Source of the DNA: Cyanophora paradoxa CCMP329
Taxonomy: Eukaryota > Plantae > Glaucophyta
NCBI GenBank assembly: GCA_004431415.1
Contig: QPMI01000629.1
Span: 1 to 64,000 of the forward strand
Direction of reading: 5' to 3'
Length of the DNA: 64,000 nt
Part shown: piece by piece, positions 1 through 23,934 of the stretch
Numbering within the stretch: the first letter of the stretch is position 1
How the letters are laid out: every line of letters begins with the position of its first letter
Program-made: the position numbers and the translations under genes
Notes under the pieces: generated by a model
Seen by the model: only the letters and a program-made list of their open reading frames with translations
The model's database searches: none
Told to the model about the DNA's origin: nothing

Positions 1-2661
1 CACCGGTGGGTGGTTGCTATTTCGCTACTCCCGAATGGATCGCAAGAAAGAAAGCAACCGTTAACGTTAAGAATATCGACGGACAAGATTGTTTTAAATA
101 TGCTATTTTGGCTCGTCTACACCGAAAGGACATTAACCGCCATAAAAGCTATGATCCCATTCAATATCGCCGATGGCTTAATGAACTGAACTTTAATAAT
201 ATCGAATTCCCGGTAGCATGCGATGCTGATGTTATCGATCGATTCGAAGAACAGAACCCGGACTTATCGGTTAATATCTACGGTGCCGATAACGAAAAGG
301 AGTCATTCTATCCGTTACATATGTCGAGCAATCCACGTAGAAAGAATAAGATTAACCTTTTACTCATCGAAAATACGGAGGAGAATAGAGGACATTATGT
401 AGCTATTGTGTCTCTAAGTCGCCTCCTTAAAACCACGTTTGATAAAGCATGTGATGGACGCATTTATTACTGTGAAACCTGTCTATCACGTTTCCGATCT
501 CAGGCGAAATTAGACCTACACATAGAAGCTAATCGGTGCATCGATTGGAGGGAAAGTAAGGGAAAATGTCCAAAACCCGATACTTACATGGAATTCGGAT
601 TAAAACACCTAAGAAAGACTGTATGGCTTCCTGTGATCTGTTACGTGAAAATCGAAGATCATTCGGTATCTGTGAGTGCAAACAAAACCAAACGGGAAAT
701 TAAAGCTGTGTCACTGAGAGTGGTAATAGGAGAAGAGGTGGTAGCTTTTCATTTTGAGGGAGCCGATCCTTTGGGTTCGCTGTTTGCCAAACTCATAGAA
801 ATTAGACCTCATGTAGTGCAAACCCTATTTAGAAATATTCCCATGCATCCACTCACAGAAGATCAGAAGGCAGAATATAGAACCACAAAGCATTGTTATA
901 TTTGCTTGCAACGATTCACAGCCGAAAACTTTTCGGTTCGCGATCACTGTCACCAAACGGGTGATTATATCGGGAAAGCATGCCGAAACTGTAACCTCCA
1001 TAGGCGAATCTCTAAACAAACAAAGGTAGCTATTGTCGTAGATCAAATGGACGAATGCGGACATGGGATATTCCGAAAATAGCCCAACAAGACGATACGC
1101 TACGTGTGGAGATTCTAAGTAAAAATTTCGATCAGTATCTATCGCTACAATGGGGCATGTGGAAATTCATAGATGCATCGCATTTTATGGATTTCCAAAG
1201 TGCAAATGTCGATGATCTTATGTTTAAATTCGAAGAATTCCGTAAATTGGCGTTTTCTCAATATGGATTAGATCCATGTCATTACGTTAGCGCTCCGGGT
1301 CTATCCTGGGATGCTATGTTAAAACATACAAAGGCAAAGATTGCACTTATCGATGATGTCGACAAATACGAATTTATTGAAAGAGCCATAAGGGGTGGAT
1401 TCGCCACTATGCCCACACGATATGCAAAGGTAGAAAATCCCGATGATCATATTGTTTTATTGGACGCAAATAATCTTTATGGTTATGCACTCAGCCAACC
1501 TTTACCTATTGGTGATTATCGATGGGAAGAAACCACAGAGGCACTGAAAGAAGTAGAAGGACGAAATGCATTTATTGAGGTCGATTTAGAATATCCTATT
1601 TCCCTCGAAGATCATTATGATTTCCCACTTATTGTGAATAAAGAAGTTATCACGACAGATATGTTAGGTGAATACCAACAAAACCTATTATATATGACAG
1701 GCGAAAAATTAACCAAAGATCCACGACTTACAGCAACATTTACACCAAAGACTAACTATGTCATATCACAACCTCTACTTATCTATCTCGTTAAAAAGGG
1801 TGTAGTCATAAAGGCGATTCATAAGGTGATCTCATTCGCTACTTCTTCTTTCATGAAATCTTACATAGCTCTGAATACAAGACTAAGACACGAATCAGGG
1901 AATAGATTCGAAAGCGACTTTTTTAAACTCATGAACAATGCGATATATGGAAAATGCTTAGAATCTTGTAGGGGTCGCTCTTCTGTAAAGATCGCCACAG
2001 TGAGAAACTATGTAAGAAATATGCCGCAAGTCCACTTATCAAAGCAACCAATTATTAAACGAAAACGCCTAGCGTTTGAAATGTATTCGAAACATGTAAA
2101 CTTTAGATAAACCCGTAGCTATTGGTGCTTTCGTTTTGGATTTTGCAAAGTTACATAATTATCAATTCTTTTATGAGGTGGTTAAAAAGAATGGAAACGG
2201 CTAAGCTACTATTCCACGATACCGATTCGTCTGTCTACTACTGAAAACCAATAATCTAAATGCGGACATGAAAGCTATCGGTGAACACCTCGATAGGAGT
2301 AATTATAATCGTGATCATCCATTATATAGTTTGTCGAATCGATTGACTCCGGGGAAGTATAAAAACGAATTCCAAATGCAAAGATCTTAGAATATGTGGG
2401 TTTGAGATCGAAACTTTACGCTTTCAGAACTGAAACCTATGAAAAAATAAAGATGTCCGGCACAGCATCTAAGGAAGTCCATTTGACGATTTTAAGAAAT
2501 GTCTATTCGAAGGTATCACCAAAACAGTAACAGTAAGAAACAAGCGACGGCAAGACCACAGCCTATATGATTTGGAGAGCAGAAGGGTGGCGCTAAACCA
2601 AATCGATAGCAAAAGGAAGATATCAAACGACGGCATTCACAGTGTCCCATTTGGTGTCTGA
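1..2661 (+). CDS. polB: Protein-primed family B DNA polymerase (Polinton-type pPolB), N-terminally incomplete and frameshifted (ORFs 6-1082, 1055-2110, then further frames to TGA at 2659-2661)
   Basis: N-terminal 'VNVKN..D.DCFKYAILA' and 'RDHCHQTGDYIGKACRNCNL' (EndoVII-like insert). Also 'GLDPCHYVSAPGLSWDAMLK', 'IRGG', motif A 'LLDANNLYGYALSQPLP', motif B 'KLMNNAIYGK', motif C 'FHDTDS' (~2212-2229), 'PGKYKNE', 'EYVGLRSKLYA' and C-terminal 'DSKRKI..DGIHSVPFG'. Confidence 0.93.
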
Positions 2662-3279: not shown

Positions 3280-4123
3280 TTATGGTAGCGGATCGCTACC
3301 GCCGACGGGATTGTATAGATTGGTGTTTAGATATTGACCGAATCGGTTAGCTGTTGCGATTGCGTCGTTTCTTTCGGCATACATAATAACTCTATAATTT
3401 CCGAGTTGTGTAGCTCTTATTATAAATTGGTTATCTTGCGTATCTAAAAGAGGTATTGAGTGGAACGCCTGACCGAAATTATCTATGGGGATAATATGTA
3501 TCGTAAGGCGTGGTCTTGCTCCGTCGGTTCTTCTACATAATGCGTAAATGTCCTCTGGTATCGTGTCTCTATATCTATAATGATTTCCTAAGGGTTCTAA
3601 TACATCGGCTACCGCTGTTTGTAAACTAATAATAATCGTATAAATCTTAATAAGGTAAGGCTCATTCATACCTGGGCAATATGTCCTAATTCGTGTGTTC
3701 TCATCATCGGGTTTGGCTGATCATTAACCAAAAGAGGCGCTCCACGATACCACCAACTCGGAGACCATCACCAATGTAAGCGCCTCCCGATCTACATTTA
3801 ATTGCTCCGTTTCTCGATTCATAAGCAAAGTTTGTTACCTTGTTATCATCATTGTAACTATCGGGATCTCCATAAAAAGCGTTAAAGTTTGCATTTGTTA
3901 CAAGGAGTTTCGTAGTTTTCACGATGCCATTGTTTTTATCACATCTTAACTCTTTCAGTCGCAATTTGTGTGTATCACCAAAAGTATTAAGAGTAGGTGC
4001 AAGTTCGGTAGATTCTAAACCATCGACATTATCGATAACGGCATGTTGTAATACGTGATTTGCCGGCGCGGCTAATGAAAGTTGCGCTGTTAAAATACGC
4101 TCAGGAGGTGCGGGTGCCGCCAT
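3280..4123 (-). CDS. Putative virion fibre/spike family paralogue 1 (split into ORFs 3704-4123 and 3280-3669)
   Basis: Colinear with 4143-4985: shared 'LKELRCDKNNGIVKTTKLLVTNANFNA...RSGGAYIGDG.RV.G' and a similar C-terminus ('R.D..A.A......N.NL.N....DP.P'). Confidence 0.65.
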
Positions 4124-4142
4124 TTAATATATTAAAACATAA

Positions 4143-4985
4143 TTATGGTGTGGGATCACCTGGGAACGGATCATCGTAGAAGTTATTTAGGTTGTTATCG
4201 GGATTGAGACCACGTGTAGCCGCCACAGCCGCTGGATCTGTTCGCATTCCGAAAATGAGAATATCGTAACCTCCTACTTCTGTTGTCCAAACATTGAACG
4301 TTGCGGGGTTCTGGTTATCAAATTCCACCCAACCTCTACCGCGTCCGATTCCCTGAACAAAGAAAGTATAAGCCGGTCCGATAATACCATTTTGTGAACG
4401 ACATATAGACTCAATAGATTTAGGAATAGCAATATTTGGTAGTAACCAATTTCCCATAATTCCATCGGGTTGTGTTGCATTTACGTTATCTACCCCAACT
4501 CTGACCATTCCAAACACATACGGATAGTCTCCACACGGAGTATACATACGGATACGTTGCGGATTGTCCGCATGCTCAGGTAGAGTATCGGGAATATCGG
4601 TAACGGCAACGGAGGATGCAAGCATACCCGACACACGACAACCGCCGCCAATAACAGCGCCTCCTGATCGGACAACAGCGGCGGCACGTTCTCCGTCAAA
4701 ATCTAACGTTCTAATATCCACACCCCATGCGTCAGGTTGCCCAATACCCGCGTTAAAATTCGCATTTGTTACAAGAAGTTGAGTCGTTTTAACCACTCCC
4801 GAATTCTTGTCGGCTCGTAGTTCTTTAACACGTATCATGCTGTTTTTATCGAATGCATTCGCGGAATTAGCGCGTTCCGTCGATTCCACACCGCGGATTT
4901 CGTCGGCTACCTCATGTTGTCGAAAGTGAACCGCGGGCGATCCCAATGCGTAAACAGGTAATTGCACACGATTATATTCACCCAT
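4143..4985 (-). CDS. Putative virion fibre/spike family paralogue 2
   Basis: Intact ORF, likely starting at MGEY (4985). Carries the shared N-terminal module 'H.V.D...G.ESTE....F..NSMIRVKELRADKNSGVVKTT..RSGGA.IGGG'. Confidence 0.7.
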   Translation of the reverse strand: MGEYNRVQLPVYALGSPAVHFRQHEVADEIRGVESTERANSANAFDKNSMIRVKELRADKNSGVVKTTQLLVTNANFNAGIGQPDAWGVDIRTLDFDGERAAAVVRSGGAVIGGGCRVSGMLASSVAVTDIPDTLPEHADNPQRIRMYTPCGDYPYVFGMVRVGVDNVNATQPDGIMGNWLLPNIAIPKSIESICRSQNGIIGPAYTFFVQGIGRGRGWVEFDNQNPATFNVWTTEVGGYDILIFGMRTDPAAVAATRGLNPDNNLNNFYDDPFPGDPTP

Positions 4986-5020
4986 TGCTTCTTTTACTAA
5001 GAAGGAAAGAAAAATAATGT

Positions 5021-5296
5021 TCATTGCTCTTCTGTGACATTGTTATACTCGATGCCTTTCTTTACAGTTCCCCTTTGGAATGCCTGTAATACAATCGCTT
5101 CCTTAGAGGTTGGTATCTGAACTCCTGATGAGATGCAAGATTGAATTTCTTTTTGAACAATATCATCGATTGCGATTCTTGCCCTGTTATGAACAACATT
5201 ATCAATCCAATCCTGAACAGAAGCAGCGCAATATTCCATTCCCAACTTTTCAATATCTGAGAGAGCCACTTGGTATATATGGTATATATTCGACAT
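5021..5296 (-). CDS. Small hypothetical protein resembling marine phage fibre-associated proteins
   Basis: Clean 91-aa ORF with upstream TCTA motif. 'MEYCAASVQDWIDNVVHNRARIAIDDIV' resembles small helical proteins found next to tail-fibre/C1q genes in aquatic phages (recognised from memory, not searched). Confidence 0.55.
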   Translation of the reverse strand: MSNIYHIYQVALSDIEKLGMEYCAASVQDWIDNVVHNRARIAIDDIVQKEIQSCISSGVQIPTSKEAIVLQAFQRGTVKKGIEYNNVTEEQ

Positions 5297-5317
5297 TCCT
5301 ATTTTATAGAGAGAAAA

Positions 5318-6340
5318 TTATGTGAGACTGAGAAGCTCACCTGTGAATGTTGTTCGATTTGTGTAGCTACCCCCATTATTTGTTACAAGTGTTACATACT
5401 CACCCATAGCAATGTTGAGAATTACACTAATGTAAAGCGGTTTATTCGTGAGAGTGGAGTTATTTTGTGTTATAATACTTTGACCCCCTGGGTCTTGGTC
5501 ATTTACTTTTAAAGAGAGACTTATTGGATTACTTGATGTTGAGTGGGTATATGCTGTAAATCTGTAATGACCCGCAACAGGAGCTGTGAACCTTCCATTA
5601 GTCACATTGAATCCATCCCTATTATTCAGAAACACTACTCCCCAATTGATAAGTGCAGTTTCACTGGTAGCAACATGAGGATAATTAAGTTGAACAGAAA
5701 ATCGAGGCTGATAGTCATATTTTAAATAACAATTTGTATTAATTGTCAAGCGATTGGTTTCCAGAGTAGCCACAATATCACTGTTGCGTTTCAAAACAAG
5801 ATTCACATTTGCTCCTGTATCGATCTCAGGTGTAACCACCTTGGAAGTTGCTGTTATTATCGATTGTGTTGTTTCTGGAATACTTATGCCTCCATGGGCT
5901 GTTACTGAACCTGTAAATGTGCTTGTTCCTGTAATGTTCACTTGATTGGCTGTTAGAGTTCCATCAATCCTTGCCCCATCTCCAATATATGCCCCTCCAC
6001 TTCTAACTGAAAGAGCAGCATTATTAATTGTATTATCAAAAGTAACTATTTTGGGTGTGGTGAACCCTCCCACATTGTCATAAATTGCTGTATCTGAAAC
6101 AATTTGACCTGATTGGACTTGGTTCTTGTTAGATACAATGAGACCTGTGGTTCTCACTTTTCCCCCATTGCGATCACATCGAATTTCTTTACATCTAATC
6201 ACAGAGTTCTGTGAAAACGAATCAGCCCCTGTTGTTTCTGTGCAAATAAACCCAGGTGTTGCATCTGTTACTGTATGGTTCAGTTGATGTATTTTTGGGG
6301 CGGCATAACAGAAAACAGGAACAGCAATTTGTGTAGACAT
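5318..6340 (-). CDS. Fibre family paralogue 3 with C-terminal C1q/TNF-like head
   Basis: Shared N-terminal module, beta-rich shaft, then the C1q signature 'PRFSV...INWGVVFLNNRDGFNVTNGRFTAPVAGHYRFT...GEYV...TFTGELL'. Confidence 0.8.
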   Translation of the reverse strand: MSTQIAVPVFCYAAPKIHQLNHTVTDATPGFICTETTGADSFSQNSVIRCKEIRCDRNGGKVRTTGLIVSNKNQVQSGQIVSDTAIYDNVGGFTTPKIVTFDNTINNAALSVRSGGAYIGDGARIDGTLTANQVNITGTSTFTGSVTAHGGISIPETTQSIITATSKVVTPEIDTGANVNLVLKRNSDIVATLETNRLTINTNCYLKYDYQPRFSVQLNYPHVATSETALINWGVVFLNNRDGFNVTNGRFTAPVAGHYRFTAYTHSTSSNPISLSLKVNDQDPGGQSIITQNNSTLTNKPLYISVILNIAMGEYVTLVTNNGGSYTNRTTFTGELLSLT

Positions 6341-6362
6341 TCTTTATACTATACAGATAATA

Positions 6363-7430
6363 TTATGTAGCACTAACAAGATCACAAGAAAGATAGTATC
6401 TGATATCAAATTGAAGAGTGGCACCAGAACTATTGCGCATATCAAAGGAGTCACCTTGAATAAGAGAAAGTAAAACTTCAAATGAAATTGGAGTTACAAA
6501 TGTATTAGAAATCCCGCGGACGGCATTGAAACCCTTGTTTGGAGGTTGTAGGATTTCCATTTAAATAAATGCTGGTAGCAATATGAGTATAAGAGGTTGT
6601 GCCAGCTCTCATGCATGCAAAGAACACCCTATATACTCCGGAAACAGGAGCTGTAAATTTTGTGGATGAAAAGTTTCCTTCATTGTTTACAAGATAAGCT
6701 CCACCTGTAAAGGAAAATGCTGTTGCATTGTTAAGTATTACTGTCCCTGTCAAACTAGGAGCTTGTCTTGATATATTCATTCTTGGGCAATAGGTTCGTT
6801 TCAGACCACTATTTTCCGGATTGTGATTACATTCAGATCTGTTATTGTCTTTTCGAGAGTGAAAATGGTATTTCCGTTTCGTTTGTAATTCATATTCACA
6901 TTTGTCCCATTGTCTATCTCAGGTGTTTGAACTCTTGTGGTTGCTTTTCGAGTTTCAACGCTAACAGTTCCCGAGAGTCCACCATTGAAGGTCATCAATC
7001 CTGTAAATGAACTTGTTCCATTCACATTAAATTGATTTGCTATGACAGTCCCCACCACAATTGCTCCATCACCAATGTATGCCCCTCCACTCTTGACCAC
7101 AAGAGCCGAGTTATTACTTGTGTTATCAAAAGTAACTATCTTTGCTGTGGTGAATCCACCCACATTATCATATATTGCTGAATCGGGGACTACCTGCCCT
7201 GCTTGAACTTGATTTTTATTCGAGATTATAATGCCTGTGGTTCTAATCTTGCCTCCATTTCGATCACATCGAATTTCTTTGACTCTGAGTATACTATTCT
7301 CTGTGAAAGAGGTATTGCTTGAAGTTTCTGTGGAAATATACCCAGGGGTTGAATCAACTACTCCATGAGAGGTGCTGTGAAGTGATTTTGCGGCGAGTTC
7401 ATAGTTTGGGATTTCTAATAGAGAGGTCAT
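6363..7430 (-). CDS. Fibre family paralogue 4 with a divergent C1q-like head (frameshifted: 6801-7430, 6505-6780, 6363-6560)
   Basis: N-terminal half highly similar to 5318-6340 ('KEIRCDRNGGK.RTTG.I.SNKNQVQ.GQ.V.D.AIYDNVGGFTT.KIVTFDNT'). Head contains 'FSSTKFTAPVSGVYRVFF' and 'LLSLIQGD'. Confidence 0.72.
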
Positions 7431-7449
7431 CTTTATAATTACGAAATAG

Positions 7450-10400
7450 TTAAATTGCGACAGCAATGTAATGGATTGTTACAGTTTTGGCTGTATTGTC
7501 CATTGCATATGGATCAGTGAAAAGTTCACATGTGAAATAGTCACTGTAAACATTTAACAGGTTCACAGTAAATATGACTGGTGTTGTAGCATTTGCCTGT
7601 CCTTCATGCCTTACTGTTGCTGTCACAACAGGAGGAGAAGCAAAGGCACTACTGAAATAGATGGTAAGATTGAACACATATAAATTATTGTAGTTCAAAA
7701 CAGGAGTAGTGTAAACATACTTTCCTGCTTTTATTTTCCCATTAAAATACGCATTGAGTTGACTGGATAGATCCGCTTCTGTAATGCATCTACTGATAGT
7801 CTGATTATTTGAAGGGTTCATAGCATAAAAGTTTCTTGCATAGGCATTTCCACGAACAAGTAAGGTCTTATCAAAGTAATTTTGCGAATTGTGGAAGAAC
7901 CATGTTTCTTCAAACATAGGTCCTGCTGGTTCTACAATCTGACCTGATCCTACATACATTGTGTTGTTCGCTCTGATGGTGGTAGCTGTGAATGGATCAA
8001 GAGTTGGTTTATTGGTCAGGTCATTGTAGTTGCCCGAAAAAATCGCTGGTTTGTTATAAATATCTGTATTCCAATCATGAGTGTGTGCAAAATCTGTAAT
8101 CTCTGCCTTTGTGTGGGTGTGACCTACATACGCAACATTTCCAAGATCTGTAATCTCTGCCTTAGTGTGGGTGTGACCTACATAAGCAACATTTCCGAGA
8201 TCTAATATCTCTGATTTAACATGAGTGTGAGCGAAATTAGTAATATCTGCTCGGGTATGGGTGTGTGCAAAATCTGTGATTTGGGATTTGGTGTGAGTGT
8301 GTGCAAAATCTGTGATTTCTGCCTTTGTATGGGTGTGTGATCTATTATTAAGGTCGAGGAAACTACCTGAAAATGCAACAGGATGTAGATTTGCTGCGGT
8401 GGGTTTATTAATTAGATCATTGTAGTCTCCTGTGAAAGAAATGGTTTTAGCTCTCCCCTTCCTACATAATCAGATGGTAGATCAATCTTTATAGGCATAA
8501 TAGCTGGATCGTCAGGTATCACATACTCACCTCCTGGATGAACCACAGGGAAGGTTTGATTACATTCAGTATGGACAAAAAGTTACATGCCGTTACTGTT
8601 CCATCAATAATCCCACCTGTTAGCGGAAGGTAATCACCTGTTACACCAATATTTATACCTGCAATGATTGTATCAAGTTCTGTTTCATCTATGTAGTTCT
8701 GGGCTTGTAGGTAATCTTCTGTAACAATTCTTGAAATTGTTTCATTGTGGATGTTTTTCGCTGAGGCTCTCTGATTGATTTCTAAGAGACCCTCACCAAC
8801 TCCATCATTATAATTTGTTTTTATCCATGATATCTCGCATCTCTTGTAGTCATCTCGATTTCCAATAAGAGCATTTGGTAACAATCTCTCTCTGGTGAAT
8901 ATTAATTTGGGTCTTGAACTATCTAAGTCACTTACATCAGTAACATTAATTTGGATTGCTGCATCTTTGTCATCATAGTTTGCTGGATCAGATGGAAGCG
9001 ATAATATTAAACTATCTGTCATTGGGATGTCATCAGCATAGTAGCTTGTCAGATAGATACCTGGTTTGGTGTCCATCAAACCGAAATTTCCGCCTGCTGC
9101 AATCATCTGCATTCTTGTGGGGGGTCTAATGTATAATTCGCCTTCCATTGTGGTGCCTGCATCTATTCCTTTTCGATTCACATAATATTCATCTAATCTT
9201 AATCTCTCTGGTATGGTATTACTTTGATAGAGAGTAACACCATGTGTGGTGTCGAATACATCACCTGCTGATGCAAACTTAGGCTGGTCATCTATTTCGC
9301 TCCACATGTGCCTATGGCAAAATCCTCGATCTCATCTTTGGTATGGGTGTGGTTTGATATCCAATCTAAAACAACATTAGAAGTGGGATGATGTGGTAGG
9401 TTTGCTTCTATATTCACAGTCAAATAATCGACGACTAAGTTGCTGGAATAAAGATTACTTGCCCAAAGGTTACTGGTGTAAATGTTACTTCCATAAATAT
9501 TACTTGCCCATATGTTACTTGTCCATATGTTACTTGCCCATATGTTACTTGCTGAAATGTACTTGTATAAATGTTACTTGTGACTGTAAGGTTTGTATCA
9601 TTTTTTATCACGAATAGTGAAAGAATATTAGTAAGTTCGCCTTCATCAATGTATCCCTGTTCTTCTAAATAATCTTCCGTTACCACTCTTGAAATATCTT
9701 CATTGTGTATATTTTTGGCGCTTGCTCTTTGATTGATTTCTAATAAACCTTCACCAACTCCGCCATTATAATTTGTTTTTATCCATGCTACCTCACATCT
9801 TCTATAATCATCTCGATCTCCTATAAAAGTATTAGGTAAAAGACGCTGCCGACTAAATACTAATTTGGGTCTCGATTGGTCAAAGTCGCTAACATCTGTT
9901 ACATTAATTTGTATTGCTGCGTCTTTGTTATCGCAACTATTTGGATCTAATGGAAGTGACGGTAGCGGAGGTAATACATTTGTCATCTCGATATCCTCAG
10001 GATAGTAGCTTGTTAAATAAATTCCGGGTTTCGTCTCATACAGACCAAAATTACCACTAATTGGTAAAATGCCTTCTCTTCTGGTGGTCTAATGTATAAT
10101 TCGGCTTCCATTCCTGTGCCTGCCTCTATTCCCATGCGATTAAGGTAGTGGTCATTTAATTGTAATCTTTCTTCTATGTTAATATTTCTATAAAGACTTA
10201 CGCCATGTTGGAAATCTGTTAATACATTTCCTGCGGATGCGAAAGTAGGTTGCTCATCGATTTCGTCCCAATTATGCCTATGATCTGCTGGTGGAAATTC
10301 AGTAGGTATGTTATCTAAATCTTCCCAATCGTGCCTATGCTCTGTCGGTGGGAATCTTTCCGGTTTGTTTAAAATGTCTTCCCATTCGTGTTCGTGGGGA

Positions 10401-11634
10401 TCTGGTGGAATGTGTCGGGTTTGTTAATAATATCCCTCCAATCTACGGTAAAATCGAAAAATCCCGGCTGTAATCCATCTGGTAATAACTCTTCATCTGG
10501 TATATGCGGCTGTTCGTAATCTATGTTAGGTGGATTTAATCCATGTGGTAAAAGTTGTTCGTCGTAAGGTTCGTAACGATCATATAACATATGGTTAGGA
10601 TCAAATCCATCCGGCAATTCTTCCACGTCTTCACATTCTTTATGTTCGAGAGGTATAACATTAATATCTGGTGCTAAGAGTTCCTCAGCGGGCGGTTTGT
10701 AATCTTTAAAAACTGGTTTATTATGGACTTTTTCCCAACTAACAAAATGCTGCCCAAACGCAACCGTTTCATCCGCTGTGTATTCTCTTCCTGGTTGTTT
10801 CTTTGGTGTAAGATCTGGTGGATCCCATGGAAGTGGAAAGGGAACCGGAGTAGGTCCGTAATGCTCTATGATCTCTCTTATGGTTTTCTCACTAACGAGC
10901 CGTTCCCCATTTGCATAAACATTACTACCATGAATATTTCGCCATTGTCGGGTTCTAATACCAAGGTCTTTCGTATTGGTTACCAAAGGTAGTAAATGCC
11001 GATCCATTTCGACAAGATCGGGATGTAAATGTATAGCTACTGGTTGACTGGGACTACTGTCGACAGTGATCGAATCTTTTTCTTTGGAAGTATCCGGTGG
11101 AAGAGTGAAACCAAACAGTGCATTAGTGTTTGAATTGGTGACAATGTCCTGTGGGTAAATATTATTGGTGTAGCGAATCTGATTCTCTTCACCATGTGGG
11201 GCTACCTGTAATATCTGAGGGATTTGTGTAATCGCATTTGATCCTTCATTATAGATTCTCAAACCGCTACGATGAACTCCCTTCTCATCCTGGACATTAA
11301 AAACCAAACGTCCGCTATCATAACGTGTGGGAATATCGGGATGCGTTCCACTTGCTTTAAGTTTCCGTGGTCTCCTTCTTGTTGCCTTGATCTCCGCAAC
11401 CGCGTTTTTTTTTACATTCCCCAAACTGAAAGCTATACTTACATCTTCTTTTTCTGGGTCTGTTTGATTCACTGTTAAAGCATGAATTCTGGGATGCGTC
11501 TTACTGGGTTTATCGGCGCTCTGATCAATTGACGCCGACCCTTTAATGGTGATATTATCAAAGTTAACATGTTTAGTGTTTCCTTTACCACTACCTGTTA
11601 TGGTTTGTAAATTTGCTGGATAATTGAAACTCAT
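7450..11634 (-). CDS. Giant phage-tail-fibre-like protein (~1,400 aa if joined), broken by frameshifts; H-type lectin/gp53-like C-terminal tip
   Basis: Fragments join across 1-nt shifts. Motifs: 'P..TNTKDLG...QWRNI', 'W.DI.NKP..FPP..H.H' repeats (10270-10445), a duplicated ~200-aa module, QVTYG pentapeptides, 'HTHTKAEITDF' repeats (8075-8340), and C-terminal 'IYFSSAFASPPVVTATV...VNLLNVYSDYF...IHYIAVA'. Confidence 0.68.
8075..8345 (-). repeat. Coding tandem repeat of HTHTK(A/S)(E/Q)ITD(F/L) units (phage tail-fibre HxH repeat)
   Basis: Recurring 'gtgtgggtgtg...aaatctgtaatctctgcc' units, about seven copies. Confidence 0.8.
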
Positions 11635-11683
11635 CCCTGGTTACTCTAATAATAGAGATTTATTAAATTTCAATAAAGTAAAG
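11635..11683. promoter_or_regulatory. Bidirectional viral promoter between the giant fibre gene and the patatin gene
   Basis: 49-bp divergent intergenic region. TCTA lies 18 nt upstream of the fibre ATG, and TAGA..ATTAAATT..AATAAaGTAAAG-ATG precedes patatin. Same layout as 15054-15097. Confidence 0.6.
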
Positions 11684-13218
11684 ATGCCCTTACGCGTAGT
11701 TTTAGCATTGTCCGGCGGCGGCGCACGTGGTATTATCATAACAAGGTTGTTAAAAGAAATAGAAACAAGAACGGGTAAACGCGTTATTGATTTGGTCGAT
11801 CTTGTAAGTGGAACGTCCACAGGCGGTATTATCGCTATCGGTCTCAATGTGAAAAATCCCGAATTTCCCGATGAACCTAAATTAACAGCTACCGACCTTC
11901 ACAATACTTACCTATATCATCTTCCTCTCATCTTTGCGAATCCGCGGAATATCATAGAGAATGCACTTTTCAATACTAAATATGATGTATCACCATTAGA
12001 AACCGCTATTTCTCTGTGACTGGGGAAGCTCTCATAAAAGATTCACTAAAAGATGTGGTTATTACGACGTTCGACACTGTAAGCATGAAACCAATTTTCA
12101 TAGCAAATGATAATGATTACAAGACTATACCAAGTAAAATAGCGGCACGTTCTACTTCCGCCGCTCCTACATATTTTGCTCCTGTCGATTACAACGGCAT
12201 GTGTCTAATTGATGGTGCTATATCAGGTAACAATAACCCAAGTGTTTGTGGTTATAGTCACGCAAAAAAGATTTATGATAACGATGACGATATTATAGTT
12301 ATTAGCATATCATGTGGTGAGGTTAACGAAACCGACGCACCAAATGTGGGTTACTCTTACGAAAGTGTGAATACCTGGGGTATTCTTTCATGGATTGCTT
12401 CCACCTCAGGGAGTCCATTAATCAATATGCTAATGGCTGCAAGTGAATTATCGGCTCTTGAAAAGATGCAAGAGTTTTTACCATATAATGATGACCAAGG
12501 ATACGCGCGATACTACCGTATCTCTGTGCCGCTTCCGAAAGATATCTTAAACTCCCTCGATGATACTTCTAAGATTCCAGACATGATCGCGGCGACTGAA
12601 ACGTATATACAAGCAAACGACGCCATGATAGATCGACTCTGTGAGTTACTTGTTACAAACTATGAGATTAAGAACCCTGTAAGATCCTATGTATCATCCA
12701 CCCTTAATAACATACCTCCTATCGATGCTAACTGGTATCTTCTATCAGATAATGCGTTTACCGCTTCTTCTGCAAAATTCGGAAAAGAGGCATTTAAAGC
12801 CCGCCCATCATTAACTGGATGGGAAGCGAATGCATCCGCAATTAACGGAGTATGGGAAACGCCTACTGAATATTTGCAAATAGCCTTCCCATATACATTT
12901 GAGGTCGCTTCTATAATTGCATATGGTTCAGGTATAACAACTGCGTTTATTAAGACTTTCAATGTTGCGACATCGCAAGATGATATAACATGGTCATTTA
13001 TCAAATATGAGGGTGTAAATAGAATGTTTGTATGTGAGAATATAAATAATGCTAATAACTCTGGGGATGTATCATATGCTATGGGGTTCCCACTTTCGGT
13101 AAATGATGTATTTTACATAGGTTATCCATTGAGAACACGATATATACGTATTTATCCTTTGGTATATATAAATGCTCCGACTATGAGAGTCGATGTTACG
13201 GGCGCATTTATACGGTAG
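11684..13218 (+). CDS. Patatin-like phospholipase fused to a C-terminal F5/8 type C (discoidin) domain; one frameshift near 12016
   Basis: Oxyanion 'LSGGGARG', nucleophile 'GTSTG', 'STSAAPTYF' and catalytic 'IDGA'. C-terminal discoidin motifs 'EYLQIAF', 'SQDDITW', 'RTRYIRIYPL...MRVDVTG'. Confidence 0.9.
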
Positions 13219-13401
13219 AAAAACGAGGGATTTTTTTCCGATTTTTTGATTATATATATGTATATGTATATATAATAATATTATTTATTATTTTTTCCAA
13301 ACATTTTGTTCTCGGTCAAACGGCATTACGGAGGTTTTGGTATATATAGTGTAAATATGTCGTGTATATATGGTGTATATATGTCGTGGGAATTTCGGAC
13401 A

Positions 13402-13530
13402 TTTCAGGACGATGGGGGGATGATTTCAGGACAATGGGGGGATGGTTTCAGGACGATGGGGGGATGGTTTCAGAACAATGGGGGGAAATAGTCAGAACAA
13501 TGGGGGAAATAGTCAGAACGATGGGGGAAG
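13402..13530 (+). repeat. G-tract minisatellite, 6 x ~21-22 bp (tcag(g/a)ac(g/a)atGGGGG(G)a...)
   Basis: Directly visible between the convergent patatin and integrase genes. Confidence 0.85.
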
Positions 13531-13775
13531 AAACCCAAAGAAACCAAAAATTCCAAGAAATTCATACAAACTGCTATAACTCTTCACCAACTGATCGCCT
13601 TTCAAAACCGCGACCATCGCCGGAATCCTCTTTTCATCCTCTACGCATCTAAGCTACTTCCGGGAACTGGATCGTAGATTTACCCGGGTTTGAGGTGCTG
13701 TATATGTCTCTTTTGAGGTCTGGAAGTCTGTATACCATCTCTGGCTGTTGACCTCTGATAGCTTCTGGGTTCCTG

Positions 13776-15095
13776 CTATGACCAACTTCTTAATTTCACG
13801 CTCCGCCTTCCTTTCTTCTTAGTTCTGGCTTGTGTTAGCGGTTCTTCTGGGACATCATCCGCTTTTTCGATGCCTTCCTTTCGTATCGCCGCATCCACAC
13901 GCGCTTCTTCTTTGGCTTGTTCTAATGCATCACCTGTGGGCGCCTCATGATACTCTACACCTTTGATAGGTAACAGTTCGTGGAAAGCAAACCTTCCATC
14001 GACCAATTCACCATTCGGATTTCGTAACCGAAACTTAAAACCCTCCCTACCCTCGACAGTATAAACGATCCGCGACCAATTGACACCCTGTTTAGCGAAT
14101 GGGTTCTTTTCTATTCTCACCCGCACAAACATACCCTTTTGAATACCGTCTAAGTAAGCCATCGACTTCTTAAACTTCTCGTCTTCTAAACCTATGATCT
14201 CTCTATAATGCTCATCTGTGGTTTCTGCGGGTTTTCTCTTAGTCGCTGAATGAACAGTATGATTATAATTATACTCAATGTCACCCAATACATCGAAAAA
14301 TCGCGCTGTGTTGTTTGCTATGCAATAGTTCGTAATAAGCCGCTTGATCTGCTTGTTAAACGCTTCAATTCTACCCTGACTACGATGATCTGCGACATCG
14401 CTAATCTGATGATCGATGAACTTCTTAGCAAGGTAGTTAGTGAACACCGTATTCGTAAATTCGCTCCCGCTATCACTTTGGACGCGTGCGATAGGTCGAG
14501 GGACTCTCTTTTGTAGCTGTTCGAAAGCGGCAAGAGTCGTAATAGCGCTCTTATCTCTCATCGGAATAATATAACCTGTTCTAAGCGTTGATTCCATCGC
14601 GGACATAAACGTATCGTATCCGTCATTTTGCTTCTTATAAGCCGGGAAAAACAGAAGATCTATAACATAGGTATCGAGAGGTTGCCTAATTGGTATCATC
14701 GGGTCTCTCTTTCTTGAAAGGGTAGGCGCGTTAATCTGAACGACTTCCTGTTTATCATACCATTCTTTCATCTTCTTATAGTCTTCATCTGGTAACTCCT
14801 TCCTCATAGCTCCGAAACCCTTGTATCCGGTGCGCGGATCGTAAAACTTCTTAGCAATCTTAGATTCTTTCGTTACAGTATCAGTAGGCAATGCCTCCGG
14901 GATCAGTTCTTTAACTATCTCAGACTTCTTTAAAATTCGTGTGTTTTTCTGTTCTATCGGAATGGTTATAGGTAGCATGTTACCCTGATCTTCTTTCATG
15001 CTCTTCTTTACGATCTTTGGAGTGGGTCTTAATCCTATCTGTGCTGACGGCATCTTTACCTTATTTCCGTAATTTAATTTTTCTATATAATTCAT
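13776..15095 (-). CDS. int: Retroviral-like DDE integrase (rve, Polinton type); true start probably the ATG at 15053
   Basis: 'YVIDLLF' (D1), 'VQSDSGSEFTN' (D2), 'QGRIEAFNKQIK' (E), 'YNHTVHSATKRKP', SH3-like 'GMFVRVR...F.K....WS..VYTV'. ORF intact; no chromodomain seen. Confidence 0.93.
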   Translation of the reverse strand: MNYIEKLNYGNKVKMPSAQIGLRPTPKIVKKSMKEDQGNMLPITIPIEQKNTRILKKSEIVKELIPEALPTDTVTKESKIAKKFYDPRTGYKGFGAMRKELPDEDYKKMKEWYDKQEVVQINAPTLSRKRDPMIPIRQPLDTYVIDLLFFPAYKKQNDGYDTFMSAMESTLRTGYIIPMRDKSAITTLAAFEQLQKRVPRPIARVQSDSGSEFTNTVFTNYLAKKFIDHQISDVADHRSQGRIEAFNKQIKRLITNYCIANNTARFFDVLGDIEYNYNHTVHSATKRKPAETTDEHYREIIGLEDEKFKKSMAYLDGIQKGMFVRVRIEKNPFAKQGVNWSRIVYTVEGREGFKFRLRNPNGELVDGRFAFHELLPIKGVEYHEAPTGDALEQAKEEARVDAAIRKEGIEKADDVPEEPLTQARTKKKGRRSVKLRSWS

Positions 15096-15097
15096 AA
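15054..15097. promoter_or_regulatory. Bidirectional viral promoter between integrase and AdoMetDC
   Basis: TCTA 12 nt upstream of the AdoMetDC ATG. On the other strand, TAGA..ATTAAATT..AATAAgGTAAAG-ATG precedes the ATG at 15053. Confidence 0.6.
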
Positions 15098-15499
15098 ATG
15101 AACCATCGGGGCTTCCATGTGATGTTAGATTACAAGTTTTCGAGTCCGCTAATTACGGGAGTGGACAACTTAGAGACCACAACAAAATGGTTAATGCACT
15201 TTTTACAAGATATTATACAAGAACAAGGTATACGAGTAGTTCACAAGCATTACGAGATTTTCGATGGTGGTCTTTCACCTCCGGGTTTTACATTAGTTCT
15301 CCTATTAGATGAGAGTCATTGCACCGCTCATTGTTACTCAGACGAGGGCATGTTAGCCATCGATATATTCAGTTGCGGAAGGGACGCGGAGGGAAAGACA
15401 TGTAATATATCATCGTTAATAGAAGAGAGGATAATAGGTATCTTTGGTGGATCTCCTAATACGGAGAGACATAAAGTATCGAGATTTCCGACACGGTAA
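15098..15499 (+). CDS. speD: S-adenosylmethionine decarboxylase proenzyme, short prokaryotic (class 1B SpeD/SpeH-like) type
   Basis: 133 aa. 'G.H.MLD' start and 'PPGFTLVLLLDESHCTAHCYSDEGMLAIDIFSCG', containing the E|SH pyruvoyl self-cleavage site and the SCG motif. Confidence 0.9.
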   Translation: MNHRGFHVMLDYKFSSPLITGVDNLETTTKWLMHFLQDIIQEQGIRVVHKHYEIFDGGLSPPGFTLVLLLDESHCTAHCYSDEGMLAIDIFSCGRDAEGKTCNISSLIEERIIGIFGGSPNTERHKVSRFPTR

Positions 15500-15548
15500 T
15501 AAGTGGTAAAAGAAGATGTAACAGGTTAATTAATTGTTTTTCAGTGTG

Positions 15549-15641
15549 GTGTTACAGGTGTTACAGGTCAATCCCAAAGTTCCAAGCCGCCGACCTCCTC
15601 CTAGGGGAAAGTTTGGGATGAACCTGTAACACCTGTAACAC
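15549..15641. repeat. ~35-bp inverted repeat (hairpin) downstream of AdoMetDC
   Basis: gtgttacaggtgttacaggtcaatcccaaagttcc ... ggaaagtttgggatgaacctgtaacacctgtaacac, with a ~20-nt loop. Confidence 0.85.
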
Positions 15642-15985
15642 ATACCATTATCAGTAAGAACCCATTAAAATAACATAATATCAGTCATAAAATACTATAA
15701 GTAATCATAAAGTATCATCAAGTATCATATATTATCCTTGTTGTATTATACACCCCGCGCTCCATACAGCACATTGTAGCTGTTTTAACACAATCGCGGC
15801 GCCATATCCGCTCCATATATGCTACGCATTTAATCGAGAAAGTACATTTTATTATTTTTCGACGGAATTCCGTTAGAATTTCATACATATTTCTTTTGAT
15901 ACATTTTACATATTTTACATATTATTCATTCACAATGCATACACATATTATTTCCATATCATTATACACGATAATGCGTAATATC

Positions 15986-16282
15986 ACACATAGACAATGC
16001 CCGCGTTTTATCAGGAGGCGTGATATAATTTATCTAAGTTTAAAATCCACCTCAAATACAAGTGATTACGAGAGATAGAGGTAAAATACATCGGAGATAC
16101 GAATACATTAAATTTCAGTAAGGGATACGTTAGTATTATATATGAAATACGCACATAAAAGACAAGAATAAAGGATAAAATACACATAAATTAACGTTAA
16201 ATATGCAAGAAATATAGGTAAATTATAAACAAATTATAATTAAACTTAGCCGAGGGATAAAACGCGGGCATTGTCTATGTGT
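15986..16282. repeat. Perfect 27-bp inverted repeat pair marking the viral right terminus (15986-16012 / 16256-16282)
   Basis: acacatagacaatgcccgcgttttatc and its exact reverse complement; GC-rich host DNA begins at 16283. Confidence 0.88.
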
Positions 16283-17767
16283 CACGCGACTAGCGCAAGA
16301 GGCGTGACCGCTGTCGGGCAGAGCCGAGCTACGTGGCTGCGTTGCGCTTGCGCCGAATCGCGGAGGGGGGGGGCAAGTGGCAGGGGGGGTCCGTAAAAGA
16401 CTTTCGGACTCTCCATTGTGATTGGCTGGGGCGTGCGGCGTCCTCCTACGCGACCGTGCTCGCGCCCGGCCTCACTCTTGCAGTACGGAATGTCTGGCAT
16501 AATGCAAGCATCCACTTCGAACTGGTCTGGTCCGTATATCTGCTCCCTGTGCGTCGCTGGACCTGGTTTTGTCCCGGGTGTTGGTGCCTGTTCCTGGGTC
16601 ACCCTTTGGTCGGACGGGACCGGGCGACATGGTTTCGGGGTCTCCTTGGGATGGGCTGTCAGGATGTACAGCGCGGCCCGGGTTTTGAGGAGGTCGGGAA
16701 AACAGGATTTGCGGTAGGGTTGGGCCCGAAGGAGAGGGACAGGGGAAGTGTTTCTCCCTTCCCCAACTAGTGTTCTGAAGGCGACTCGGTAGACTACAGC
16801 TCAAACACCAGCTCGACATCTCCGGGATCCTCCGGATCCTGCAGTCAGAATCCCGGGATCCTCCTGCAGTCAGCATCCCAGTATCCGATAGGCGAGGAGC
16901 GGGGGACTAGTACTGTTGTCAAGTGTGTACAGTACAAATGCGCATGCGACCGTCGGGCAGGCTTTCCAAAAAAACTAGAGCTTTTCCACAGGGTATCGAT
17001 TGATGCATGCGCAGGGGAGGCACAATCTCCAACTTGGCAACTGCGCATGCGTCTTTCAAAGTTTCACCCTAGTCATGCAGATCAAGACTCTGAGACACAA
17101 ACTGGCTGTATGTTGCAATATTAATATTCGAATTCATCGATTCAATGATTGTTTTTGCATACAAGTCCACACTCACGTGTGGTAGCACTGCCAATGATGG
17201 TCTGGTGCAGCTGCATTCGCATGCGCAGCTTTGGAGTAGGCCGGGCCCTACGTACGACAGGCTGTCGGGCGAAAAGCAGCGGGCTGCGGGCCGCCGCCCG
17301 CCGCGCCCGCGTCCCCGGGGCCCTTCAAGGCTTTCGGCGAGCCGCGCCGCCGCTCCCGGCCCCGGGCGCGGGGCGGGGTCCCCGGGGGTGGCCGGGCTCG
17401 GCGCGGTGGCGCGGCTCCCCTCGCGGGCGGGGGGTTCGCGGGGCTTAACTTGCTGCGGCTCGGGGCAGGGCGTAGGGTAGGGTGGGCGGCGGCTCGGCTC
17501 TCGGGAGAATGATCAGCCGGGAGGGCATCCGATCATCGGATGATCAGCGCGTCGAGCTCGCGCGCCATACTATGATTGAAATTTCCCTGAGGGGAGGTAC
17601 CCGGTGACCGGTCCTGGGTTCAACGGTTCGAATTCGAGCTTCAAGACTTGAGGGAAGATTTTAATTTTCAAACTCTTTCCTGAGGCCCTGAGGGGAGGTT
17701 CGAGCTTGAGGTTCGAGCTCAGCGGCTTTAATTTGAGGGGAGGTTTTTGGGTTGAGCGAAAAGGGTG

Positions 17768-17901: not shown

Positions 17902-18222
17902 TTTTGCGTTAACTGGGTCCTCGCGCTCTGGCGCATCTTCGAATTCCGAGCGCGCGCAACGCTTTGTTTACATCTCTTATGCATGTACTTGGGGAAGGAC
18001 CCCCTTCCCCTTCCCCCACTTGGGGGTGTTCGGGTGCCCACCCTAGGCCAAAATGAAATGTCCCGACCTCCCAAAACCCAGGTTTTCTCGCCGGATCCTA
18101 GCAAGCCATGTCCCTAGGAGTCCGGAAACGTGTTCCGGGAGATCCGGATCCCGTCGGGTCGACCAGGAATGAGCAATAACACATTTTCAAAAAAAGTGAT
18201 CTAGCGCCTCACCAAGTGGCGG

Positions 18223-18825
18223 TTAACTCACTCGGCTTATTTCTCGCGCGGGTAAGACTCTGAGATCTAGATCAGGATCGTATGCTGGAGATATCTGATT
18301 TGAATATACTGCCGGCCGTACACTCTAGGTGACTACAATTGGATGCCTGTAAACGATCAGGGGGCTGCACACGAGGCTAAGGTCTGTGACTAGACCGACA
18401 GCTACGAGGGTGCTGGCCTCTGGGCGCCTCAAGGGACGGTGTGGGCGGGAAACGCGAAATTGAGGCGGCTCGGGCGCCGCGCTTGCGTGCGAAAACGCGT
18501 ATGGGTACGCTAGTACAAGTTGACTACCTGAATCAAATTCGGAACTTGAAGTTTAGACTGCGAAACGGGGCTCGAACAGCCGGCTCGCTAACCTCAGTAA
18601 ATCTACTTTACTACCCATTAACTCACTCGGCTTATTTCTCGCGCGGGTAAGACTCTGAGATCTAGATCAGGATCGTATGCTGGAGATATCTGATTTGAAT
18701 ATACTGCCGGCCGTACACTCTAGGTGACTACAATTGGATGCCTGTAAACGATCAGGGGGCTGCACACGAGGCTAAGGTCTGTGACTAGACCGACAGCTAC
18801 GAGGGTGCTGGCCTCTGGGCGCCTC
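18223..18825 (-). repeat. 3' B1-A2-B2 split direct repeat block (B ~208 bp twice, A ~168 bp)
   Basis: 18223-18430 = 18618-18825; 18451-18618 = 23185-23352 (identical on reading). Confidence 0.92.
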
Positions 18826-20618
18826 CGATGCGAACGAAATATAATGAAGAGAAGCGGCATCCAATAAATGATATAAAATATGTTTGGTGTGAAGCAGCGA
18901 GGAAAGAGAAGAAAGACGATATCGATAAATCTAGAAGAGCGGGCTCGAGACTGGCCGGCGCCCTCACGGGGCCTGTGGCTGGCCTGATTGAGGAGCGGAG
19001 GCGGCAGACGGTGAGGGAGCTCGAGGAGGAGAAGGCGGCGGTGGCAGCGAGCCCTGGGTCTCGGGCCACTGAGGGGAGTCGGCGAGGAATCCGCTGATGG
19101 GAGCCGCTCCTTGAAAACGCTGATCTGTAGGCGAGAGAGCGGGTCGGCGAGCGTGTTCTCGAGGCCCGGGACGTGTACAGCGCGAAACTCGAAATGGTGG
19201 AGGGCGGAAAGGCGGTAGAGGGAGCGGAGGAGGGGAGCGAGGGCCGGCTGCGAAATGCGGCCGCCGGAAAGGGCATGGAAGACAGGTTTACAGTCGGTTT
19301 CAAAAATAATTCGCTGCTGCTGCCAGCTGGGGCCCCAGGTCGCCGCTGCGATGACGAGGGCCATCAGCTCGCGCCAGGGCATGCTGCGAGTCGTGCCCTC
19401 TGGCCAAGATCCGAAGGTCCACGAGCTGCCGAAAACTGCGCCGAAGCCGAGATTGCTGGCGTCGGTCTGGATTCGCAGCACCTTGGCCGACTGCCAGTCA
19501 GACGTAGGGATGAGCCGGACTCCGTGCAGCCGCTGGAGGAGGTCGCGCCACCATGTGAGATCCGCATGAAAGCCGGCATGAAGCCGGGCGCGATGGTGAT
19601 TGGCCCGTAGAGTGGCGAGCTGCGCCACGACCCGCCGAAGGAAAAAGCGCCCCGCGGGGACGACGGGCACGGCCGAGACGAGGGAGCCGGCGAGGGAGCG
19701 GAGCTGGCCGGCTGAGGCATGGCTGCGAGTGGCCCACTCCGCGAGCTTCGCCTCGAGGTCGGCGAGCCGCTCTGGGGACAGGCGGGCCACCATCGCGAGG
19801 CTGTCAAGCTCGATGCCGAGGAAGGTGAGGCGGGTGCCGGGTCCTTCTAGCTTATGCGGGGCCAGAGGAATACCAAGGTCCGCGCAGACCTCGAGCAGCA
19901 CGTCGATGTACCGCCGGCACTCGCCGGTGCCGGCCTGCCCGATGAGGAAAATGTCGTCGACATATCGGGTGGGATCGAGCCCACGACGGCGGAGGGCAAA
20001 ATCGAGGGCCTGGCCGAGGTCCTCGAAAATGCGGGGGGAGGAGCGGGCACCGAAGGGGAGGCAGAGGTCGATGAAAAATTCGAGGATGGTGGGATTGGAG
20101 CGGGAGGGGAGGGCGAAGCCGAGGAGCCACCAGTCCTTCCGCCGTACCGCCAGCAGGCGAAAAGCAGACTCGATATCCGCCTTAGCCATCTCGGCGCCGC
20201 GGCCGAGCTGAATCAGAAGCTCAATCGCTCTGCTGACCTTCGTATTCTGGTAGTGTAGCTCGTCAGGGTCGATGCCGCTGTTGACTGACGGGCCGCGGTG
20301 CTTGGGGTACGAAAGGTTGTGAATTCGGCGCCATTTGGTCGAACGCTTCTTCGGAATGGCGCCGACTGGGGAGGCAACGAAGGGGCGAGGGAGGAGACGG
20401 GAACGGGCCGGCGACCCGTCCCATGGCGATCTCCTTCTCGACGTCCTGTCGCACCACGTCGATGTGCTCAAGGGCAGAGGGCTCGGGGCGGGAAATTGCA
20501 GAGAAGGAAGGGCCGCGGTACTGCAGCGGGAAGCCGTGGGCGAACCCGTGTGCGAGGCGGGCGGCAAGGGAGGATCGGGGTGGCCCTCCAGGGCTGCGGC
20601 GATGCGATCGGGCCGCAC
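18720..20618 (-). CDS. Reverse transcriptase-RNase H (DIRS/Ngaro type); frameshifted near the N-terminus
   Basis: 'SPVGAIPKK..KWRRIHNLS', 'KADIESAFR', 'LPFGARSSPRIF', 'YVDD', 'FLGIELD'. RNase H: 'TDASNLGFG', 'ELMAL', 'FETDC', 'HVPGLENTLADPLSR'. N-terminal 'GFPLQY...EIAMGRVAGPF' lies in ORF 20263-20814. Confidence 0.93.
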   Translation of the reverse strand: MRPDRIAAALEGHPDPPLPPASHTGSPTASRCSTAALPSLQFPAPSPLPLSTSTWCDRTSRRRSPWDGSPARSRLLPRPFVASPVGAIPKKRSTKWRRIHNLSYPKHRGPSVNSGIDPDELHYQNTKVSRAIELLIQLGRGAEMAKADIESAFRLLAVRRKDWWLLGFALPSRSNPTILEFFIDLCLPFGARSSPRIFEDLGQALDFALRRRGLDPTRYVDDIFLIGQAGTGECRRYIDVLLEVCADLGIPLAPHKLEGPGTRLTFLGIELDSLAMVARLSPERLADLEAKLAEWATRSHASAGQLRSLAGSLVSAVPVVPAGRFFLRRVVAQLATLRANHHRARLHAGFHADLTWWRDLLQRLHGVRLIPTSDWQSAKVLRIQTDASNLGFGAVFGSSWTFGSWPEGTTRSMPWRELMALVIAAATWGPSWQQQRIIFETDCKPVFHALSGGRISQPALAPLLRSLYRLSALHHFEFRAVHVPGLENTLADPLSRLQISVFKERLPSADSSPTPLSGPRPRARCHRRLLLLELPHRLPPPLLNQASHRPREGAGQSRARSSRFIDIVFLLFPRCFTPNIFYIIYWMPLLFIIFRSHRRRPEASTLVAVGLVTDLSLVCSPLIVYRHPIVVT

Positions 20619-20769
20619 GGGCGTGGGGCGAGGCGGGGCGGGACGCCTGGGAGGAGCTCGTCGACATCAAAGTCAGGGACCTCAATGGAGAAAGGCGGCG
20701 GCGGCGGCGGCGCCCTGCCCCGGCGAGGAGGCGCGGCCCGGCTTCCGGAAGGCCCGAGCCTTGAGCACC

Positions 20770-23177: not shown

Positions 23178-23184
23178 GGGGCTG

Positions 23185-23352
23185 AACGCGAAATTGAGGC
23201 GGCTCGGGCGCCGCGCTTGCGTGCGAAAACGCGTATGGGTACGCTAGTACAAGTTGACTACCTGAATCAAATTCGGAACTTGAAGTTTAGACTGCGAAAC
23301 GGGGCTCGAACAGCCGGCTCGCTAACCTCAGTAAATCTACTTTACTACCCAT
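23185..23352 (-). repeat. 5' A1 repeat of the Ngaro element
   Basis: Matches 18451-18618 (aacgcgaaattgagg...ctttactacccat). Confidence 0.92.
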
Positions 23353-23934
23353 ATATCTACCGGACCAAGTGCGCCTGAATGCGCTTGATATGCCCGACGA
23401 TTCTTGTCATACATTACGAGACCGGAGAGGCACAGGGTGGCCCGCTAGGCCGCCTCAAGTACCTGTTGTACCGAGCGCCGAAAAAAAGCGCTCCTGAGAG
23501 TTTGTGGCGCATCGAGACTCGAGCAGGGGGGAATGGATGCCGATATCGTGTTGCAGTACCCGGCAGGCTAGCCAACTGTGTGCTGCTGCCATGCCAACAG
23601 CTGCCGAGTCAGTGCCGACTGGCTTTCGCGCTGGCCAACTATAGCTAGCTGAGCTCCGGCTAGCTGCACATGCCTTGCAATGCTGTAACAGCTCATCAAG
23701 CACTTCGGAACGTGAAAGAGTGCAGGAAGAAGACGCCCGCTACGCCGCCGCCGCGTTCCGGTGCGCGTAGCCGATGGTTCTGACTGCCCCGCGCCTGCCG
23801 TCCGCAGATGCGACACTCTTGCGCCGAAAGGTGCGCTCGCGCGCCGCCCGGCAATCTCGCGCCGGGCGTCGTGTCGTCAACGCGTGTCGTCGAACAGCTC
23901 CTCTCGCGCCGGAAGCCGACACGTGCCGCGCTCC

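Follow-up and report, generated by a model that had tools for sequence, protein, structure and literature searches.

We found that a Polinton-like virus (PLV) element integrated in the genome of the glaucophyte Cyanophora paradoxa CCMP329 carries an intact class 1b proenzyme of the SpeD fold, which probably decarboxylates L-arginine to agmatine, as SpeDA enzymes do, and not S-adenosylmethionine (SAM). This substrate assignment draws on the clade into which the protein falls and on the genes that accompany its relatives. It departs from the earlier note on this DNA, whose title called the gene an S-adenosylmethionine decarboxylase (AdoMetDC), a name that the tree, the gene neighbourhoods and the fusions, all pointing to the SpeDA clade, make probably wrong. 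The window, i.e. the whole stretch of 64,000 nucleotides that was analysed, holds one end of the element and the host flank beyond it (Table 1).

Table 1. Features of the element within the window
Feature	Position	Strand	Evidence
Protein-primed DNA polymerase B and endonuclease VII-like segment, several frames, 5' part beyond the window, approximate end	1..2661	+	ORFs, profiles
Run of fibre/adhesin-like ORFs (N-terminal domain common to four ORFs; C1q and H-lectin domains), several apparently split	3280..11634	-	profiles, copy gaps
Patatin-like phospholipase with a discoidin (F5/8) domain at its C terminus, divided here between two ORFs	11684..13218	+	ORFs, profiles
rve-type integrase, open frame, likely start 15053	13776..15095	-	profile matches, homologue
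AT-rich spacer, 44 nt, with TATATA run	15054..15097		sequence, upstream comparison
Class 1b proenzyme of a SpeD-fold pyruvoyl decarboxylase, probably SpeDA acting on L-arginine	15098..15499	+	ORF, profile, fold, tree
Inverted repeat of 33 bp with 91% complementarity, 50 nt past the stop codon of the decarboxylase	15549..15641		repeat search
Terminal region with perfect 27-bp inverted repeat (15986-16012 / 16256-16282), arms 243 nt apart	15986..16282		repeat search

The 133-codon frame of the decarboxylase is complete and stop-free in the ORF analysis, with ESH at residues 72-74 and SCG at residues 92-94, as the earlier note had described it. A Pfam profile search matched the protein to PF02675 with 47.3 bits (cut-off 25, E 3e-12), and its Ser73, His78 and Cys93 align with S63, H68 and C83 of the Thermotoga maritima AdoMetDC; all 10 invariant columns of alignment A1 are kept. 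The AlphaFold model, built from a 39-sequence alignment, reached a pLDDT of 94.4, and its top Foldseek matches were the AdoMetDCs of T. maritima (1VR7) and Aquifex (E 1.7e-7 and 2.3e-7). The ORF encodes an intact SpeD-fold proenzyme of class 1b. On the model of the T. maritima enzyme, the predicted cleavage point lies between Glu72 and Ser73, and self-cleavage would yield a 72-residue beta chain and an alpha chain that bears the pyruvoyl group. The likeness to the T. maritima class 1b AdoMetDC (PDB 1TLU, 1VR7) comprises the fold (TM 0.70) and the equivalents of the three catalytic residues, whereas identity across the structure is about 20%; where T. maritima has H-T-W-P-E the ORF has H-C-Y-S-D, and an Asp precedes its ESH site.

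The ORF lies in a block of low GC content (bases 1 to ~16300, 36-46% GC per kb versus 51-83% past it), and a step from 36% to 70% GC at ~16300 marks the right edge of the element, ~0.8 kb beyond the decarboxylase stop. The element extends past the left end of the window, so that only one of its ends is included. The polymerase segment matches the protein-primed PolB profile PF03175 (E 1.6e-13), and the gene is broken in this copy. Searches of the window with Pfam and by tblastn with 11 PLV-like proteins gave no match to a capsid protein, packaging ATPase or protease, the left part of the element lying beyond the window, and the label 'Polinton-like virus' therefore rests on the pPolB, rve, fibre-like and lipase genes. 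This gene set supports the viral location that the note had proposed, and together with the H-lectin domain, the discoidin-patatin fusion and the AdoMet_dc gene itself it resembles that of the glaucophyte PLVs tabulated by Bulzu et al. (2025; PMC12220804). The absence of a spermidine synthase from the window also held, with none among the 18 ORFs scanned in an element that exceeds the window's left end.

The four ORFs at 3704-7430 share a nameless N-terminal domain of ~120 residues (37-59% identity) and differ in their C-terminal heads (C1q and others). The stretch resembles a modular fibre array, and contig joints suggest that copies differ there. The best NCBIfam match of the patatin-discoidin gene was the model for CBASS cGAMP-activated phospholipase (E 4e-12, far below the cut-off), and other copies diverge from this gene around 12942-12974. 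A near-identical multi-copy contig spans 15940-16269. The note had placed the ORF inside the terminal repeat; in a window that holds a single element end we found local hairpins and no long partner repeat, which did not confirm this placement. The inverted repeats at 15549-15641 and 15986-16282 are possibly replication or integration signals. Past ~16300 the flank includes a reverse-transcriptase element (18200-23360 and 26648-33645) with repeated end segments and nested long inverted repeats (300-600 nt, 97-98%), and a tandem array at 39400-64000, possibly a satellite, in which a 615-bp unit recurs ~40 times and many of the repeats are ~100% identical over 300 nt.

Directly upstream of the decarboxylase lies the divergently oriented integrase, confirming the head-to-head arrangement seen in the note. 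The integrase matched PF00665 (rve, E 5e-4) and an IS481-like model (E 1e-14), each below its curated cut-off, and a single-sequence search of viral contigs returned no relatives. The gap between the two genes is 2 nt if the first ATG of the integrase is used and 44 nt if the ATG at 15053 is used. Because a homologue with 72% identity starts near 15053, this is the likely start and the spacer is 44 nt long; lying between divergent starts, it is likely a common promoter region.

At least half of the sampled words of positions 13700-16400 occur in 20 public sequencing runs of one organism, and in three DNA runs ~2500 short contigs per run cover the element stretch with many variants. These variant contigs fit a multi-copy family. 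Contig depth, which gives no copy number, summed to 2283, 2493 and 2269 over the gene bin, was far lower over the flank bin at 16801-17400 (543, 489 and 163), and reached 3605, 3548 and 2769 over the integrase bin, which the gene bin did not exceed. One further run, taken to be RNA, had no depth over the gene bin, which bears on expression neither way. In all three DNA runs, contigs linked 2836 to 15073 across opposite strands, with a short side of only 28-34 letters, which could reflect an inverted inner block of 12 kb or another gene order in further copies.

We placed the decarboxylase in two phylogenies, a careful tree of 57 hand-picked rows out of 193 (143 columns) and a quick tree of all 193 rows, from which 17 short proteins had been left out beforehand. 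In the careful tree the ORF falls inside a clade with 98/94 support together with marine group II (MGII) archaeal, chrysophyte (P0041) and viral proteins; a split with 99/99 support sets the 12 rows of canonical or outgroup SpeD apart. The quick tree agrees, with the canonical SpeD split at 97. An extra group that joins the 98/94 clade is one that we take, from its sequences, to be planctomycete-like. The description 'prokaryote-type' in the earlier note holds for the fold, but the ORF stands closest to a giant-virus-like gene and to unnamed metagenome proteins, and the clade includes protist genes.

The composition of this clade corresponds to that of the well-supported SpeDA clade of Li et al. 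(2023; PMC10407285), which unites MGII/III archaea, Gimesia, Solirubrobacter, Nannochloropsis and Tribonema. Six of six tested proteins of that clade were active on arginine and none of the six on ornithine or lysine (PMC10407285). Our trees were built without the validated SpeDA proteins DAC51064, AIF02979, WP_081459519, XP_005856029 and KAG5182568, and the match between the two clades is therefore one of taxon and gene order, not of sequence. The ORF shares 40-50% identity with the archaeal genes and sits on a long branch (0.9), so that its substrate could have shifted again.

Gene neighbourhoods point in the same direction as the trees. Among the best 80 of 494 GTDB matches, 79 had archaeal titles (marine group II where the title was specific), 77 had DHS/speY within 4 kb of the speD homologue, and 14 had an arginase-family gene nearby, always in the order speB-speD-speY; both neighbours were sought with single-protein tblastn queries, which may undercount them. 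The speB-speD-speY cluster is the context of the validated MGII enzymes (PMC10407285), and agmatine is a substrate of SpeY (PMC13625781). None of five such genomes (incomplete assemblies of 1.3-2.5 Mb) gave a match to spermidine synthase, whereas 10 of 14 control genomes did. The ORF resembles SpeDA in size, fold and catalytic Ser/His/Cys, and in that no spermidine synthase partner was found among the ORFs scanned, and it groups with the MGII genes of speB-speD-speY clusters; it differs in being solitary, with neither speY nor speB, and in residing in an integrated small eukaryotic DNA virus, while the SpeDA clade as described in the available text of PMC10407285 names no viral member.

Fusion partners were surveyed in 41 long homologues out of 164. 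We found DHS in five (one below cut-off), a PQ-loop domain in five, an NNMT-type methylase in four, and an arginase-family and a SET domain in one each; none of the 41 carried a spermidine synthase. In P0046, P0052, P0104 and P0135 the SpeDA-like domain is fused to an NNMT/PNMT-type methyltransferase, in two of them also to deoxyhypusine synthase, and such proteins may possibly provide a single-chain, three-step route to methylated agmatine or polyamine. In P0030, P0036, P0038, P0063 and P0128 a PQ-loop membrane domain is fused to the SpeDA-like domain, an arrangement that may possibly couple a transporter to the decarboxylase. Some PQ-loop proteins are basic amino acid transporters.

The nearest relatives of the ORF make up a separate subfamily, whose pattern is SPPGF..LDESH..AHCYS. 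An Asp at S-2, a Tyr at H+2 and the lack of Pro at H+3 are common to the ORF and all 80 of the best 80 of 494 GTDB matches, and the canonical H-x-W-P proline occurs in 1 of 175 motif instances of the subfamily. All 69 canonical viral SpeDs have Pro-Glu at the H+3 site, the canonical group having been drawn after the motif was seen. The ORF lacks the H+3 Pro and has an upstream Pro; the diagnostic Pro of PMC10407285, illustrated in its Fig. 8, is matched to neither by the available text. The validated AdoMetDC of phage phiYS40 (L250:8096-8530) also lacks the H-x-W-P Pro. This exception limits the diagnostic use of the residue, and we dropped the proline as a main argument on substrate.

We considered that the ORF might nevertheless be a true AdoMetDC, supplying decarboxylated SAM to a host spermidine synthase or draining SAM and so weakening methylation-based silencing of the element, the latter being an idea of the earlier note. 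Fold and catalytic residues are identical in kind, SpeDA has diverged little from SpeD (PMC10407285), the eukaryotic viruses HaV01 and YSLPV2 have validated class 1b AdoMetDCs (PMC9992855), and four of the homologues contain an additional, SAM-dependent methylase domain. Since a eukaryotic host would provide spermidine synthase, the absent partner proves nothing by itself. Against SAM as the substrate stand the separation of canonical SpeD in the trees, a score of 46 bits against the SpeD/SpeH equivalog model TIGR03330 (cut-off 75.65), nearest prokaryotic relatives that adjoin speY and lack speE, and the failure of MGII and Solirubrobacter members of the SpeDA clade to complement a delta-speD mutant (PMC10407285). 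We therefore regard a true AdoMetDC as unlikely. The anti-silencing role is likewise unlikely, because the ORF is probably an arginine decarboxylase; CpG is undepleted (o/e 0.98 in the element, 1.05 in the flank), which lends that role no support yet is compatible with it. The note had cautioned that arginine or ornithine is the substrate of some homologues, in line with the SpeDA placement, and arginine as the substrate would explain the missing spermidine synthase.

A shift to L-ornithine, as in SpeDC, or to another basic amino acid would give putrescine directly and dispense with a host agmatinase, and for a gene that stands alone this activity would be the more useful one, following an argument made in PMC10407285 for ornithine. 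One virophage protein has SpeDC-like residues, with its best match in Atribacteria (PMC7805220, Table S1), and one phage enzyme takes both substrates (PMC9992855). We consider this shift improbable, as the four residues diagnostic of SpeDC, Gln, Thr, Phe and Tyr (positions taken from the alignment text of Fig. S5), are all missing from the ORF, and neither ornithine nor lysine was a substrate for any of the six proteins tested from the matching clade. There is a similarly small chance that the gene is an inactive or unexpressed passenger, newly acquired or decaying with the element. Several neighbouring genes are broken in this copy, and the joint found in each of the three DNA runs suggests another arrangement of this place in further copies. 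Yet the frame is full-length with every invariant column kept, its composition (GC 41%, GC3 0.40) matches that of the remaining element ORFs (GC3 0.21-0.49), and no variant or gap fell within it among the matches listed for the DNA-run contigs (40 of 1464 variant rows, 12 of 75 gap rows). The family also recurs in glaucophyte and cryptophyte elements (PMC12220804) and on PLV-like contigs, as detailed below.

The probable arginine decarboxylase has relatives in other viruses. Two IMG/VR scans, the second covering 80 of 528 matches, yielded 18 loci of the ORF subfamily, of which 6 are PLV-like, 8 giant-virus-like (on evidence of varying strength) and 4 phage-like; a single-sequence search of viral contigs had returned no relatives of the decarboxylase. 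The PLV-like loci are four contigs of 18-19 kb and two fragments, in which an A32-type ATPase adjoins capsid-sized ORFs. These ORFs had no Pfam match, and a single-sequence fold of the presumed capsid of L175 reached a pLDDT of 32, so that L002, L003, L006 and L174-L176 owe the name PLV-like solely to their size, their A32-type ATPase and the layout of their genes. L002 also carries two neighbouring capsid-sized paralogues that are 49% identical (3208-6080). An NCLDV capsid was found in one of three records searched. The phage records held only distant canonical SpeDs, with 25-47% identity across parts.

In the careful tree the ORF pairs with the unnamed protein P0019 (99/88), and the two are sister (96/89) to a gene on the giant-virus-like contig L092, which encodes Erv1/Alr, RNase III and D5. 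PLV-like L174/L175 pair with L008/L011 (98/92), L006 with L172 (93/85, unstarred), and L002/L003 with L004 (100/100), whose identity is unsure as it showed no giant-virus hallmark. A single clade of the ORF and five PLV-like rows, a group set by gene content before the first tree, was rejected (AU p 7e-6). The PLV-like carriers are not one clade, and their four lineages each stand beside giant-virus-like copies, an observation that is neutral as to direction. At none of the 19 viral loci of the clade did we find a match to agmatinase or DHS beside the gene, and the downstream steps must therefore come from elsewhere.

Genes of this Pfam family have been tabulated in elements of the same kind. 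Table S6 of PMC12220804 gives PF02675 counts of 66 in Glaucocystophyceae (156 elements), 45 in Rhodomonas lacustris (706), 17 in Cryptomonas pyrenoidifera (57) and 10 in C. borealis (177). The glaucophyte elements of that study share with the present one lipases (89), rve (85), pPolB (49) and the discoidin-patatin fusion, which is reported from glaucophyte and rhizarian PLVs. The supplement of PMC7805220 (Bellas and Sommaruga, 2021) lists AdoMet_dc in one virophage and a cluster, PC_0120, of 22 proteins from virophage and GKS2 PLV clusters, which one column calls 'DNA methyltransferase'. In the material available from these two studies the genes are table entries without a substrate assignment, and AdoMet_dc is absent from both main texts; they are likened to the ORF by family label, and the one sequence compared is SpeDC-like.

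Viral and phage class 1b AdoMetDCs, arginine decarboxylases and ornithine decarboxylases are established as polyamine genes (Li et al., 2023, PNAS; PMC9992855). Like the present element, those viruses carry single SpeD-fold auxiliary polyamine genes, some of them switched to arginine (HTVC201P) or ornithine; they differ in that the tested eukaryotic viruses have true AdoMetDCs and the switched enzymes are from phages. HTVC201P lies outside the clade of the ORF in the quick tree, on a long branch, and the available text of PMC9992855 makes no mention of 'Polinton'. Full-text searches, with most subscription journals outside their range, found no report that joins Polintons or PLVs to this enzyme or to polyamines, and no paper that proposes an arginine substrate in PLVs. 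The gene terms are likewise absent from the main text and supplements of PMC10120064 and from the main text of bioRxiv 10.64898/2026.10.13.758929, whose supplements could list the gene. The SpeDA enzyme type and the presence of the AdoMet_dc family in PLVs and virophages (supplementary tables) are already known, whereas the assignment of arginine as substrate to an enzyme of eukaryotic viruses may be new, as may the recurrent pairing of PLV with giant virus copies in the tree.

We propose that the element-borne proenzyme would cleave itself at Ser73 and then convert L-arginine to agmatine. When the element is active, enzymes of the host or of a co-infecting giant virus might carry agmatine on to putrescine and to spermidine or homospermidine, and the raised polyamine supply could serve translation and DNA packaging; we advance these two steps more cautiously than the first. 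The role in polyamine supply that the note had suggested is thus supported, by way of an arginine-decarboxylating clade. A single PLP-free gene of 133 codons would be a cheap entry to the polyamine route, and it would likely pass between giant viruses and small PLVs in common host cells. More speculatively, and with considerable doubt on our part, small PLVs may have swapped a pyruvoyl arginine decarboxylase with giant viruses at least four times and may use it during co-infection to turn arginine into agmatine, and so either to feed their own replication with polyamines or to starve the giant virus of arginine. If so, a eukaryotic virus of 20 kb would possess a true auxiliary metabolic gene, which would act as a metabolic lever in the conflict between host, giant virus and PLV.

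If the ORF does act on arginine, part of the 'AdoMet_dc' genes of PLVs (138 counts in four host groups; PMC12220804) would be mislabelled, and the decarboxylase gene would serve to trace exchange between PLVs and giant viruses. In that case the SpeDA clade would reach from cells into eukaryotic viruses, giant and small, and a need for polyamine metabolism would recur even among viruses of ~20 genes.
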